From: Cetorhinus maximus
Lineage: Eukaryota
Length of the DNA stretch: 64,000 bases
Direction of reading: 5' to 3'
NCBI RefSeq assembly: GCF_964194155.1
Contig: NC_135879.1
Location: 192,138,001 to 192,202,000, forward strand
Shown here: one piece after another, positions 10,021-63,153 of the stretch
Layout of the letters: the number at the start of each line of letters is the position of its first letter
Numbering within the stretch: position 1 is the stretch's first letter
Made by a program: the position numbers and the translations under genes
Notes under the pieces: generated by a model
Seen by the model: only the letters and a program-made list of their open reading frames with translations
What the model was told of the DNA's origin: nothing
The model's database searches: none

Positions 10021-10261
10021 AGTGAGATGTGGTGTTGAAGGGAAAGACGTATTTGACATAAATAGGGAACTGAGCTACTTAGAGGACATTTTTACGATTG
10101 GAATAGATGTGGGACTTGCATTTGAGATCAGAGGAAATGGTGAGACCAAAAATTCAAATAGATAAAGGAGGACCAAGGGTGGAGCAGTCAAAGTCCAGGA
10201 ATAGCAATTGTTTGTTGGTCTTGTGGGAGACCTGGAATAATAGAAATTGAAGGAATTTTTT

Positions 10262-12723: not shown

Positions 12724-14044
12724 ATTATCATTAGGGCAATGGATTGCTGTGGTGAAATCTGTTAAAATATTCACTACAGCAACTGCTAAAATGATGCATA
12801 TTTAAACATGCCTACAAGATACCAAAATAATAATTGAGCTTAAGAAAAAAAAAACATTATTAGATTTTTTTAATGCAACAATAATCACAAATGATCAGAT
12901 TTGTTAACAGTTTACTTCCTTGCAATCTTACTTATGATTTCCAAATACTTATCACATGCCTGCCAGCAATCTTGACCCCCTTGCCCCTGACAAATTTTCT
13001 GTGGGACCTCTGTCATAGAAAGTTACATTGGTTACTTGAGGCTTTGTGACAGTGTTTATTTAGTTAACTCTGTCTGAGTACACAATGAGAAATTATACCC
13101 TGTGGAACAGAATATAACAAAGTACATTTTCATGAGGAGCCATTGGAACTATAATTATGATCATTATATATATAACTAAAAGTCAATTACAGCATATTCA
13201 GTAACCAACAAACATATGCAAGCTATACCATTGTTTAAACAATTACAAATTTACAAATAACAAGTGGTAATTTTCTGTTATTATTGGCACTGCAACGTTG
13301 TACACTCAGTGTTTGCTTTCTTAATTAGATTCTCAAGATGCACTTTTGACACTTCTATGACAAGCAGCACCCATAAAACCTGGGATCCCATTTGCAGGCT
13401 GGTCCTTCTGTACCTGGGCGAGGTTTAATTCTAGTCGGTCTGATTGATACTGAATTTAGGTTCCGCACAATGCACTCTGTCCAGTAATTTTACTAGGAGA
13501 TAAACATGAACTATTAGCTATGTGTCTAAAGAGAACTTATCCTTTAATCTTCTACTAACTAACAGTTTTCCAATAAGTCTGTTGAAAAGTTCTAATTGAA
13601 AAGTTAATCCTTTTACTTTCAGATGTCAATTGGCCTGTTTTGAATTTTCCCTATTCTCTGATTTTATTCCAATATGATTTCCTGGAATATTTTGTGACAT
13701 TCATGTGGACCCAGGTCACCTGATTCTCCTCCCCACCGCACATTATTACTGCCAATCACAGCGCATTCAGATGGTCTTGATAATCATGTAATATTTAACT
13801 ACATTAATTATATGATAATTTATCTTTGAATATCTGAACTATATCCAATCGCCATACATACAAGGCAGTAAGAGCACTTCTATTCTTAATTGGTCATAAA
13901 ATCACATGTTTCTCAATTCAGTATGGGGTGGTGGGGAGGTGGGGTGTGGGGAGAGGAGTCAAATTAAACAAAACCATAAGCAATCCCTGAAAAAAAGCTT
14001 TATAAAATATGTGCAATGATTCTTATTAACAGTGTACCTACATC

Positions 14045-14165
14045 ACATAGAATGCAGCGGTTCAGGAAAGCAGCTCACTACCACCTTCTCAGGGGCAACT
14101 AGGGATGGGCAAAAAATGCTGGCTTAGCCAGTGAAGCCCACATCCTATGAATGAATAAAAAAGAA
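14045..14165 (+). mobile_element. LINE/SINE 3' tail fragment
   Basis: CAGCTCACTACCACCTTCTCAGGGGCAACTAGGGATGGGC..ATGAATGAATAAAA, the same tail as 18030-18265 and the SINE at 63161. Confidence 0.75.
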
Positions 14166-14184
14166 ACAGTCCTCATGATTTTAA

Positions 14185-15024
14185 CAAAAAGCTAAAAGCT
14201 ACTGCGGATGCTGGAAATCCAAAATAAAAACAGAATTACCTGGAAAAACTCAGCAGGTCCGGCAGCATCGGCGGAGAAGAAATCAGTTAACGTTTCGAGC
14301 CTTCATGGCCCTTCGGCAGAACTGGAGCATAGTTAGAAGAAGGGAGAAATATAAATTGGTTTAAGGTGGGTGGGGGGGGGGGGGGGGTGGGGGGGCGGGG
14401 TGGTGGGGGGGTGGAGAGAAACATTGAGGGTGTGGTGTGGTGATTGTGGAGATGAGCAGATAATCAAAAGATGTCACAGACAAAAGGGTCAAAGAGGTGT
14501 TGAAGGTGATGGTATTTGTCTGAGAAAAGTGCTAATTAAGAATGGAAGACAGGATATTCAAAGTACAGCTCTAGTGGGGGTGGGGTGGAAAGACTAAAGG
14601 TTTTAGTTTTAGATTTAAAAATAATGGAAATAGGTGGGGAAAGAAGAATCTATATAAATTATTGAAAAAAAAGCGGGGGGGGGGGAAGAAACGGGGTGGG
14701 GATGGGGGGAGGGGGAGTTTAAGATCTAAAGTTGTTGAATTCAATATTCAGCCCGGAGGGCTGTAAAGTGCCTAGTCGGAAGATGAGGTGCTGTTCCTCC
14801 AGTTTGCGTTGGGCTTCACTGGAACAATGCAGCAAGCCAAGGACAGACATGTTGGCAAGAGAACAGGGTGGAGTGTTAAAATGGCAAGCGACAGGGAGGT
14901 TTGGGTCTTTCTTGCGGACAGACCGCAGGTGTTCCGCAAAACGGTCGCCCAGTTTGCGTTTGGTCTCTCCAATGTAGAGAAGACCGCATTGGGAGCAACG
15001 AATGCAGTAGACTAAGTTAGGGGA
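14185..15024 (-). repeat. Inverted arm (pseudo-LTR copy) of the Penelope element
   Basis: Reverse complement of 16683-17486 with few substitutions; mirrored ORFs are visible in the ORF track (14732..14977 + vs 16730..16975 -). Confidence 0.95.
14284..14324 (-). ncRNA. Minimal type-I hammerhead ribozyme motif (variant core CUGCCGA)
   Basis: Minus strand reads CAGTT-CTGCCGA-A-GGGCC-ATGAA-GGCTC-GAA-ACGT-T-AACTG: stem I, core, stem II, GAAA and palindromic stem III, as typical for PLE hammerheads. Confidence 0.7.
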
Positions 15025-16988
15025 CCCCTCCCTCTGGATTCTTACCTTCTCTTGATCTTTTCATTGAGAACTGTCGGCGTGACATTAGCCGTCTCAATTT
15101 CTCTGCTCCTCTCACCCATTCTAATCTGTCTCTCTCTGAACTCACTGCACTCCGTTCTCTCAGGTCCAACCCCAACATTGTCATCAAACCCGCTGACAAG
15201 GGTGGTACTGTTGTTGTCTGGCGCATTGACCTCTACCTCGCGGAGGCTGAGCGTCAACTCGCAGACGTTTCCTCCTACCTCTCCCTGGACCATGACCCCA
15301 CCACAGAACATCAAGCCATTGTTTCCAGGACTGTCACTGACCTCATCTCCTCTGGAGATCTTCCTCCCACAGCTTCCAACTTGATAGTCGCCCAACCTCG
15401 GACGGCCCGCTTCTACCTCCTACCCAAAATCCACAAACAGAACTGTCCTGGCAGACCGATCGTGTCAGCCTGTTCCTGCCCCACGGAACTCATTTCTCGT
15501 TATCTTGACTCCCTTCTCTCTCCCCTTGTCCAGTCCCTTCCCACCTACATCCGTGATTCCTCTGACACCTTACGTCACATCAACAATTTCCAGTTCCCTG
15601 GCCCCAACCGCTTCCTCTTCACCATGGATGTCCAATCCCTCTACACCTCCATCCCCCACCAGGATGGTCTGAGGGCCCTTAGCTTCTTCCTTGAACAGAG
15701 ACCCCAACAATCCCCATCCACCACTACTCTCCTCCGTCTGGCTGAACTTGTTCTCACACTGAACAATTTCTCCTTTAACTCCTCTCACTTCCTCCAAATA
15801 AAAGGTGTGGCTATGGGTACCCGCATGGGCCCCAGCTATGCCTGTCTCTTTATGGGGTATGTGGAACATTCCTTGTTCCAGTCCTACTCCGGCCCCCTCC
15901 CACAACTCTTTCTCCGGTACATCGATGATTACTTCGGTGCTGCTTCATGCTCTCGTCGGGACCTGGAAAAAATTATTAATTTTGCTTCCAATCTCCACCC
16001 CTCCATCATCTTCACATGGTCCATCTCTGACACTTCTCTTCCCTTCCTTGACCTCTCTGTCTCAATTTCTGATGATAGACTGTCCACCAATATCCATTAC
16101 AAGCCTACCGACTCCCACAGCTACCTCGACTACAGCTCCTCACACCCCGCTTCCTGTAAAGACTCCATCCCATTCTCTCAGTTCCTTCGCCTCCGTCGCA
16201 TCTGTTCTGATGACGCTACCTTCAAAAACAGCTCCTCTGACATGTCCTCCTTCTTCCTTAACCGAGGTTTTCCATCCACGGTCGTTGACAGGGCCCTCAA
16301 CCGTGTCCGGCCCATATCCCGCGCATCCTCCCTCACGCCTTCTCCTCCTTCCCAGAAACATGATAGGGTCCCCCTTGTCCTCACTTATCACCCCACCAGC
16401 CTCCGCATTCAAAGGATCATCCTCCGCCATTTCCGCCAACTCCAGCATGATGCCACCACCAAACACATCTTCCCTTCACCACCCTTGACGGCATTCCGTA
16501 GGGATCGTTCCCTCCGGGACACCCTGGTCCACTCCTCCATCACCCCCTACTCCTCAACCCCCACTTATGGCACCTCCCCATGCCCACGCAGAAGATGCAA
16601 CACCTGCCCCTTCACTTCCTCTCTCCTCACCGTCCAAGGGCCCAAACACTCCTTTCAAGTGAAGCAGCATTTCACTTGCATTTCCCCTAACTTAGTCTAC
16701 TGCATTTGTTGCTCCCAGTGCGGTCTCCTCTACATTGGAGAGACCAAACGCAAACTGGGCGACCGTTTTGCGGAACACCTGCGGTCTGTCCGCAAGAAAG
16801 ACCCAAACCTCCCTGTCGCTTGCCATTTTAACACTCCACCCTGTTCTCTTGCCCACATGTCTGTCCTTGGCTTGCTGCATTGTTCCAGTGAAGCCCAACG
16901 CAAACTGGAGGAACAGCACCTCATCTTCCGACTAGGCACTTTACAGCCCTCCGGGCTGAATATTGAATTCAACAACTTTAGATCTTAA
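15021..16988 (+). CDS. Penelope-like reverse transcriptase + GIY-YIG endonuclease (5'-truncated; frame open from 15021, no native start)
   Basis: The frame upstream of the listed 15381 start stays open (TPPSGFLPSLDLFIENC..VIKPADKGG). RT motifs FYLLPKIHK, RPIVS, DVQSLYTSI, GVAMG, RYIDD, FLD; Cys-rich linker CPRRRCNTC; endonuclease LVYCICC..LYIGET..RFAEH..EEQHLI..GLN. Confidence 0.93.
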   Translation, partial: GTPPSGFLPSLDLFIENCRRDISRLNFSAPLTHSNLSLSELTALRSLRSNPNIVIKPADKGGTVVVWRIDLYLAEAERQLADVSSYLSLDHDPTTEHQAIVSRTVTDLISSGDLPPTASNLIVAQPRTARFYLLPKIHKQNCPGRPIVSACSCPTELISRYLDSLLSPLVQSLPTYIRDSSDTLRHINNFQFPGPNRFLFTMDVQSLYTSIPHQDGLRALSFFLEQRPQQSPSTTTLLRLAELVLTLNNFSFNSSHFLQIKGVAMGTRMGPSYACLFMGYVEHSLFQSYSGPLPQLFLRYIDDYFGAASCSRRDLEKIINFASNLHPSIIFTWSISDTSLPFLDLSVSISDDRLSTNIHYKPTDSHSYLDYSSSHPASCKDSIPFSQFLRLRRICSDDATFKNSSSDMSSFFLNRGFPSTVVDRALNRVRPISRASSLTPSPPSQKHDRVPLVLTYHPTSLRIQRIILRHFRQLQHDATTKHIFPSPPLTAFRRDRSLRDTLVHSSITPYSSTPTYGTSPCPRRRCNTCPFTSSLLTVQGPKHSFQVKQHFTCISPNLVYCICCSQCGLLYIGETKRKLGDRFAEHLRSVRKKDPNLPVACHFNTPPCSLAHMSVLGLLHCSSEAQRKLEEQHLIFRLGTLQPSGLNIEFNNFRS

Positions 16989-17387
16989 ACTCCCCCTCCC
17001 CCCATCCCCACCCCGTTTCTTTCCCCCCTCCCCCGCTTTTTTTTTCAATAATTTATATAGATTCTTCTTTCCCCACCTATTTCCATTATTTTTAAATCTA
17101 AAACTAAAACCTTTAGTCTTTCCACCCCACCCCCACTAGAGCTGTACTTTGAATATCCTGTCTTCCATTCTTAATTAGCACTTTTCTCAGACAAATACCA
17201 TCACCTTCAACACCTCTTTGACCCTTTTGTCTGTGACATCTTTTGATTATCTGCTCATCTCCACAATCACCACACCACACCCTCAATGTGTCTCTCCACC
17301 CCCCCACCACCAGCCCACCCCCCCCCCCACCCCCACCCCCACCCACCTTAAACCAATTTATATTTCTCCCTTCTTCTAACTACGCTC

Positions 17388-17428
17388 CAGTTCTGCCAAA
17401 GGGCCATGAAGGCTCGAAACGTTAACTG
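17388..17428 (+). ncRNA. Minimal hammerhead ribozyme motif (core CUGCCAA, probably inactive)
   Basis: CAGTT-CTGCCAA-A-GGGCC-ATGAA-GGCTC-GAA-ACGT-T-AACTG; differs from the left-arm copy by G>A at core position 8. Confidence 0.6.
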
Positions 17429-18029
17429 ATTTCTTCTCCACCGATGCTGCCGGACCTGCTGAGTTTTTCCAGGTAATTCTGTTTTTGCTCATGATTTTAA
17501 ACAGTGGCTGGTTAAGGGAAACTATATAAAACACAATTAGCACCTGCAAACTCACATGCATTATTTCTTTTCTCCACTATTTTCTTTCCTCTCTTTTTCA
17601 AGGAAATTGTTTGCTTCCCAATTATGCATCCATTAGCAATAAGGAGGTCTTGCTGGTTAGCATCCCTGCCTCTAGCCAGAAGCACTGAGTTCAAGTCCCG
17701 CTTCAGGACTTGATGGCCAAGGAAGGCCATTTATAACACAGCAGAACAGAATCAACTTGTAAATCTTTCCAACATACACCATAGGCAGTGATAAGAGATT
17801 AATAAGCTGCCTCCTCCAAAGTTGTCTGACTGGATCCTGGGTCAGTATTTATGAGTTCCTGATCCTGATGGGGACCTGGGATCGAAAATCCTGTCTGTGA
17901 ATTCAATGGGATCCCTTGCAGCTGATTGAGAATCTTACACTTTCCCAAGCTGCAGCTGTGGTAGTATTGAGCTTGAGGGGGTGGGAGTGGAAATTTACCA
18001 TTGTGCAACCTATTTGAAACTAACAACCC

Positions 18030-18265
18030 CAACTATTCCAAGTCACTTACCATCCTGGCTTGGAAATTTATCGCCGTTCCTTCAATGTCGCTGGGTCAAA
18101 ATCCTGGAGCTCCTTCCCTAACAGCACGTTGGATGTACCTATGCCACAGGGACTGCAATAGCTCAAGGAGGCAGCTCACCACCACCCTCTCAAGGGCAAT
18201 TAGGGATGGGCAATAACCTATGCCCTAGCCAGGGACACCCACATCCCATGAATGAATTAAAAAAA
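18030..18265 (+). mobile_element. CR1/L2-group LINE 3' end
   Basis: CCAAGTCACTTACCATCCTGGCTTGGAAAT..GGCAATTAGGGATGGGCAATAA..ATGAATGAATT, matching the reverse complement of 21535-21740. Confidence 0.8.
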
Positions 18266-63032: not shown

Positions 63033-63153
63033 AGCTCTAGAGAAGAGTCATATGGACTCAAAACGTTAACTCTGTTTCTCTCTCCTGCTGAGTTTTACCA
63101 GCATTTTCTGTTTTTATTTCAGATTTCCAGCATCCGCAGTATTTTGCTTTTAT
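63033..63153 (+). mobile_element. Short Penelope pLTR-derived repeat with degenerate hammerhead
   Basis: CTAGAGAAGAGTC-ATATG-GACTCAAAACGTTAACT followed by CTGCTGAGTTTT..ATTTCCAGCATCCGCAG, homologous to the reverse complement of 14185-14324. Confidence 0.8.

Follow-up and report, generated by a model that had tools for sequence, protein, structure and literature searches.

Evidence for double-ended priming in a Penelope-like element family of Cetorhinus maximus

The window analyzed here is a 64,000-nucleotide stretch of the Cetorhinus maximus genome (contig NC_135879.1, forward-strand positions 192,138,001 to 192,202,000). It carries an insertion of a Penelope-like element (PLE) whose two outer ends are both 3′ termini of the element, facing in opposite directions and bracketed by one target-site duplication (TSD). 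Comparison with related copies in the same genome supports double-ended priming. The insertion is probably the 5′-truncated product of an approximately 14-base staggered cut, at which both 3′ ends primed on the same RNA, one at the end of the element's tail and the other about 45 bases upstream. The evidence consists of the insert anatomy, a fixed pair of ends, the pairing of tailed with tail-less ends, TSD lengths, shared haplotypes, and the coupling of inner ends, all of which were observed directly. The window insert is real and is an ordinary member of a known architecture, representing the family norm and no rarity.

Positions within the element are given on a scale whose zero, E0, is the last T of the pseudo-long terminal repeat (pLTR) end (window position 17486), with positive values running into the tail. 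A natural full-length partial-tandem copy with a unit of about 3.3 kb (L061) served as the mapping reference. An inverted, tailed arm occupies 14185 to 15024 on the minus strand (E+41 to E-780) and comprises the pLTR/3′ untranslated region (UTR) and the C-terminal part of the GIY-YIG coding region. A forward, tail-less arm, mapped on L061, occupies 15022 to 17487 on the plus strand (E-2441 to E+1). The left arm equals the reverse complement of 16683 to 17487 plus the tail, in agreement with the opposite-facing 3′ termini of a preliminary description of this DNA. The forward arm was also described correctly, except that it ends at 17487 and not 17486; in L061 this added G is templated, as the first base of the tail. 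The tail (14185 to 14224, minus strand; E+2 to E+41 by comparison with L061) is found in the left arm only, as had been claimed, and measures 40 nt, not about 42 (the string quoted earlier was 41 nt long, 14185 to 14225). In full-length tandem copies, the tail runs on into the 5′ leader and the start of the open reading frame (ORF). The left arm's outer end at E+41 is about 5 nt short of the usual tail end, which falls at E+46 to E+48 in 39/63 family inserts.

The insert is flanked by two exact copies of CTCATGATTTTAA (13 bp, plus strand), at 14172 to 14184 and 17488 to 17500. These are its only plus-strand occurrences in the window, and there are none on the minus strand. As a control, flanks were mispaired in 300 trials; chance repeats never exceeded 10 nt, which confirmed the 13-bp TSD reported earlier. 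The left copy ends in AA, two bases complementary to the template just beyond the tail, and the match to the element reaches E+43 at 14183. The arms meet head to head at 15022 to 15024, where GGA had been suggested as microhomology; the templates of both arms read GGA in the L061 context, and the 3-nt microhomology is genuine. The inner ends of the two arms are 1661 nt apart on the element. The tail is present in the left arm only, and 1.66 kb of reverse transcriptase (RT) coding sequence is present in the right arm only. Because each arm holds sequence absent from the other, simple fold-back copying is excluded for this insert.

In the host genome (4.0 Gb), a 35-nt tail motif is matched exactly at 10,218 places; a 33-nt motif from the pLTR end has 35,419 such matches, older subfamilies among them. 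The main sample consisted of the first 100 tail matches on one contig (C1), chosen by position, plus the window. Three of these 101 anchors were unparsed and 7 marked internal tandem junctions, which left 91 terminal anchors: 63 head-to-head inserts (window included), 25 single-arm inserts, and 3 complex or incomplete ones. The partner arm of the head-to-head inserts ended at E-10 to E+15 in 54/63 cases and was tailed in none (0/63). A tail-less sample of 40 regions, taken from the first 100 pLTR-end matches and picked as unpaired or unclear plus some pairs, yielded 23 tail-less single-arm copies. Both end types are therefore found in single-arm insertions, 25 tailed and 23 tail-less, in two different samples. 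A fixed order in which the tail end is used first was rejected on this near equality. As a tail-blind replicate, 35 opposite-facing pairs of young-subfamily pLTR ends were collected. All 34 complete pairs were tailed/tail-less (one further pair ran off its region), while two sites used equally and independently would make only half of the pairs heterotypic.

TSD lengths distinguished inserts with two 3′ ends from those with one. Among the 63 head-to-head inserts, the TSD was 14 bp in 27, 13 bp in 16, 15 bp in 11, 16 bp and 11 bp in 3 each, and 12, 17, and 18 bp once each (median, 14; 13 to 15 bp in 54/63). The replicate gave 14 bp in 19, 15 bp in 7, 13 bp in 6, and 16 bp in 2 (34/34 at 13 to 16 bp). 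A clean TSD is thus the rule in this family, and the earlier remark that clean TSDs are not always seen was overstated. Single-arm inserts had a median TSD of 9 bp, values of 5 to 6 bp being within chance, and 13 to 15 bp was found in 8/48 (Mann-Whitney p = 6e-14 versus head-to-head), a contrast weakened by the tiny second stubs on two of the apparent singles (L040 and L113). The preliminary description had proposed one staggered cut with priming on both strands, at two different positions of the template, and subsequent joining of the two cDNAs. This proposal is supported by the exclusive contents of the arms, by the occurrence of both end types as singles, and by the loss of the approximately 14-bp TSD in most single-arm inserts.

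It is very improbable that the layout arose from two independent adjacent insertions, a preexisting 13-mer repeat, or an assembly artifact. A single duplication brackets both arms, with none at the inner junction, and the same layout recurs at 63 plus 35 loci with a narrow range of TSD lengths. For 19/63 inserts, the rejoined target could be aligned, through the insertion point, with an intact repeat at another locus (70 to 98% identity, several gapless at 91 to 98%), indicating that those duplications were made by insertion. The two window arms differ at 7/709 sites, and neither can therefore be a collapsed copy of the other. In favor of such an origin, the empty allele of the window locus was not recovered; contigs of three organisms reach 14088 to 14109 on the left flank and break in an adjoining repeat resembling a short interspersed nuclear element (SINE), and no contig spanned the right flank.

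At the tailed end, pairing between primer and template averaged 1.9 nt against 0.38 in the control (57/63 scorable); the tail-less end averaged 1.2 nt against 0.67 (48/63 scorable). Both averages carry a small upward bias from maximal-repeat calling. A similar A-poor downstream bias was seen at both nicks. Separately, two inserts (L193 and L187) struck one host repeat motif at positions that overlap, with duplications GTAGATAGATTCTT and AGAGGTAGATAGAT, which hints at target preference.

The inner ends of the two arms were frequently coupled. They lay within 20 nt of each other in 34/57 simple inserts, compared with a permutation mean of 7.6 and with that count reached in 0/10,000 permutations. 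For long inserts, inner ends were at most 30 nt apart in 11/30 versus 1.3 expected. The replicate behaved similarly, with coupling in 18/35 overall (3.9 expected) and in 7/24 long inserts (0.8 expected). Pairs of stops were found deep inside the element, at -510/-510, -475/-475, -572/-574, and -1168/-1183. The simplest cause of coupled stops is run-off at one RNA 5′ end. The 57 simple-insert junctions showed microhomology of 1 to 4 nt in 27, filler in 24, and blunt joining in 6, as is expected of end-joining. The preliminary description had called for all genomic copies to be tabulated by TSD length, tail side, and junction microhomology; a tabulation of the sampled copies agreed with its double-priming model (54/63 at 13 to 15 bp, 0/63 two-tailed, 27/57 with microhomology).

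The inner ends of short arms pile up at E-70 to E-105 (window positions of about 17381 to 17416), across a hammerhead-like motif and upstream of its predicted cleavage site. Hammerhead cleavage was rejected as the process that sets the inner ends, since its predicted site, near E-63, lies outside the cluster of short-arm ends at roughly E-70 to E-105. The pile-up may reflect a point at which transcripts begin or RT stalls.

Identical arms and near-symmetric centers, both of which are common, are what would be predicted if a single priming event were followed by self-priming of the folded-back cDNA, and endonuclease resolution of the intermediate then left the tail on one side (such ideas appear in the available text of PMC3846280 and PMC8557442). 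Several results nevertheless make this origin improbable. The window insert could not be made from one cDNA, given a tail on the left only and 1.66 kb of coding sequence on the right only. Tail-less ends also occur alone, as 23 ordinary 5′-truncated copies; the longer arm can be either one; and junctions were blunt in 6/57 and contained filler in 24/57. Fold-back copying would also leave unexplained why the TSD is longer when both ends are 3′ ends of the element.

From which template the two arms were copied is addressed by their haplotypes. At 43 segregating sites, discordance was 49/2417 (2.0%) within inserts versus 31% between inserts; in the youngest subfamily it was 0.16% within versus 0.63% between, in a set that favors similar arms. 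Fifty-one alleles were found in the two arms of a single insert and in none of 101 others, compared with 146 private alleles that occurred on one arm. In the window, both arms have T at E-261, and the 42-mer around it has three matches in the genome, two of which are the window arms themselves; it was found in 0/29 nearest loci. The third carrier (L203) was rejected as the parent, being a 760-nt single arm that differs from the left arm at 7/680 sites.

The window arms differ at 7/709 unmasked sites, in addition to E+1 and changes in the poly-C tracts. The preliminary description listed two of these differences, CAA/CAG (14989/16718) and CTT/CTC (14980/16727), which are real without being the full set, and took them as a hint that the arms came from different pLTR templates. 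That hint was not borne out, as each rare allele is on one arm only and both arms share the E-261 variant. Each rare allele was present in 0/30 other arms and in 1/29 nearest loci, and the two had 75 and 72 genome matches, numbers without a direct denominator. Among these matches, 4 and 2 opposite-facing pairs, respectively, carry the allele on both arms; the four that were examined (L330 to L333) are head-to-head inserts. In the youngest subfamily, A at E+1 of tail-less ends versus G in tailed ones (10/10) was likewise considered as proof of two pLTR templates and rejected, because genome-wide patterns and the raw loci revealed that the alignment had dropped a 5-nt duplication present on both arms.

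Both nicks could instead have primed on separate templates. These might be two RNAs from a single source locus or, much as in L1 twin priming, two pLTR units within one tandem transcript, in which case the tail-less arm would come from the downstream unit and the tailed arm from the upstream one. Strict tailed/tail-less pairing would follow if source transcripts end without a tail, and a within-insert discordance of 2% at segregating sites, the existence of tandem copies, the uncoupled inserts such as that in the window, and the A/C difference at 14853/16854 all suit this explanation. It leaves unexplained, however, why the two arms should stop at one and the same base, hundreds of nucleotides into the element. 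In addition, tail-less ends agree with the internal pLTR-tail junction in subfamily sequence, tailed arms reach 3.3 to 3.7 kb (L145 and L303), and an internal tail is possible in tail-less arms (L151 and L329). On balance, we consider separate templates unlikely, though clearly less so than fold-back copying.

A wider and more tentative account, which we hold short of calling it probable, is that Penelope-like elements in general read one RNA molecule twice when they integrate. A dimer would make the 14-nt stagger, and its subunits would divide the tail-end and upstream starts between them in every double-ended insert; the near-identity of tandem units would then point to a circular template or one re-entered by jumping. 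Tandem units within one young insert (L151, L303, L145, and L304) are as alike as its two arms, with 2 differences in 1844 nt, and one private allele is present in all three copies (E-682 in L151, E-413 in L303). Such likeness is compatible with an RNA template that is circular or re-entered, or with a tandem source that is very young.

Several observations weigh against two starts on a single RNA. The window insert itself is uncoupled, like about 15/57 inserts with offsets of more than 200 nt, and near-symmetry could arise by later trimming of a hairpin loop. The fixed pair of ends has exceptions: 9/63 partner arms end more than 10 nt short of E0, and two tail-less/tail-less doubles (L191 and L192) and one intermediate (L190) were found. 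The replicate was selected by an exact 67-mer on both arms, which favors similar arms. Shared alleles show one source locus and not necessarily one molecule, and gene conversion between arms could also produce them. At 14853/16854 (E-609), the window arms have A versus C, both of which segregate among the nearest relatives; a mutation that arose more than once would account for this, as would a stretch copied from a second template. Finally, the available text of PMC11167929 reports no start-site difference between strands in vitro for an anole PLE protein, whereas the ends in vivo here nearly always differ.

Under double-ended priming on one RNA, a protein dimer would make the stagger with 3′ overhangs, and each subunit would take a different start site. 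The first cDNA would be displaced from the RNA by the enzyme starting downstream. The 3′ ends of the cDNAs would stop together if both enzymes reached the end of the RNA, and apart if one stalled, as would be the case in the window. Host end-joining would then link the two cDNAs over 1 to 4 nt of microhomology or a short filler. If only one end primed, the idle overhang would be trimmed, giving a shorter single-arm TSD; if both primed, both overhangs would be protected.

L1 elements offer a parallel in twin priming, in which a second target nick primes a second cDNA, the junction is head to head with microhomology, and there is one TSD. In L1 inversions, the copied segments of the RNA do not overlap, and the internal site from which copying begins varies. 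The inserts described here resemble this process in the second-nick cDNA, the head-to-head microhomology junction, and the single TSD around the whole insert. They differ in that one 3′ region is copied into both arms, starting from two fixed sites: the arms overlap from E-780 to E+1 in the window and overlap in the sampled inserts too, unless they came from different tandem units.

The closest published layouts are those of other PLEs. The available text of PMC3846280 calls this layout the typical Penelope structure, and that of PMC8557442 draws it. In both sources, as available, Pen2a of Adineta vaga has an inverted 5′-truncated pLTR, a 30- to 40-nt tail at one end, and a TSD around the whole insert, as here; the rotifer TSDs are 8 to 10 bp compared with about 14 bp in the shark element. 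The same portions of these papers invoke self-priming or endonuclease resolution and give no figures for the side of the tail, TSD length in each architecture, or coupling between arms. In the available text of PMC11167929, the PLE protein of Poseidon from Anolis carolinensis cleaves and extends both strands in vitro, with one start site on each side of the tail; a dimer is predicted, and later integration steps are left unvalidated. Both-strand cleavage and extension, start-site spacing equal to the tail, the predicted dimer, and a hammerhead cleavage that is unnecessary all recall the family studied here. Poseidon belongs to another clade (the shark ORF has a CX4CxxC linker), its AC-rich stem-loop lies inside the ORF while U-rich GUUUUU-type repeats lie upstream of the ORF here, and no homology was reported for it in vitro compared with the 1- to 2-nt primer pairing seen here in vivo. 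A literature search outside subscription papers and supplements found no paper with a single-RNA double-priming model plus counts, and the available text of 10.64898/2026.07.22.740005 and PMC9977147 contributed nothing further.

The right arm contains a 5′-truncated, stop-free open frame of 655 amino acids (15021 to 16988, plus strand) that lacks the N-terminal part and start codon of L061, followed by the 3′ UTR/pLTR with two poly-C tracts (16989 to 17486, plus strand). An RVT_1 RT domain with the motif YIDD was detected at amino acids 144 to 319 (E = 3.3e-7, above the cut-off), and a GIY-YIG match in the C-terminal part (amino acids 558 to 593; E = 4.9e-4) scored 20.8 bits, below the Pfam cut-off of 22.6. 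A PDB sequence search gave 0 matches. The family shows several features of endonuclease-containing (EN+) PLEs. RT and C-terminal GIY-YIG lie in a single ORF (in the window frame, with the full layout in L061). The pLTRs occur as partial tandems (L061, 3.3-kb unit) or inverted copies (the window and 63/91 sampled inserts), and a tail of the 30- to 40-bp type is present at one end (40 nt in the window; one-sided in 34/34 complete replicate pairs). According to the available text of PMC8557442, a CX2-5CxxC zinc-finger linker separates RT and EN in the Neptune and Nematis clades. The window ORF has such a linker, CX4CxxC, between its RT and EN domains (CPRRRCNTC, amino acids 521 to 529). Since we take Nematis to be a nematode clade, the linker suggests that the element is a Neptune-like Penelope.

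The motif that we take to be hammerhead-like was spotted by eye in the pLTR (17388 to 17428, plus strand), where it has the noncanonical core CTGCCAA; the canonical core is CTGANGA. The left-arm copy (about 14284 to 14324, minus strand), also spotted by eye, has the core CTGCCGA, and the core reads CTGCTGA in many of the youngest copies. An Rfam search for the motif gave 0 matches at E values up to 1. A stem-II hairpin was seen in the putative fold, whose overall z was 0.52.

Other observations concern tail variants and the surroundings of these copies. In the youngest subfamilies (L204 to L263), the tail is lengthened at E+1 to E+11 by a 5-nt duplication, and the tail-less end still falls within the same T-rich stretch. 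L215 and L216 (C1, about 14.986 and 14.994 Mb) are opposite tail-less ends about 8 kb apart with the same 75-nt outer flank, consistent with a larger inverted duplication or an assembly fold. In the window, the end of a SINE-like repeat (130 nt) occurs in two copies, at 14033 to 14162 and 18134 to 18263, that are 78% identical, and the insertion lies 10 nt behind the first. An older related pLTR-end stub of 58 nt (86% identical) is at 63084 to 63141.

Inverted pLTRs with a one-sided tail have so far been ascribed to self-priming or endonuclease resolution. In a family with more than 10,000 exact tail matches in one genome, four measurable rules emerge: heterotypic ends, a 14-bp TSD only when both ends prime, a shared template, and coupled stops. 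All four would be explained by one model, a dimer acting on one RNA, which the existing in vitro system could test directly. While the single insertion is ordinary, the statistics of the family make the integration mechanism of these elements testable.

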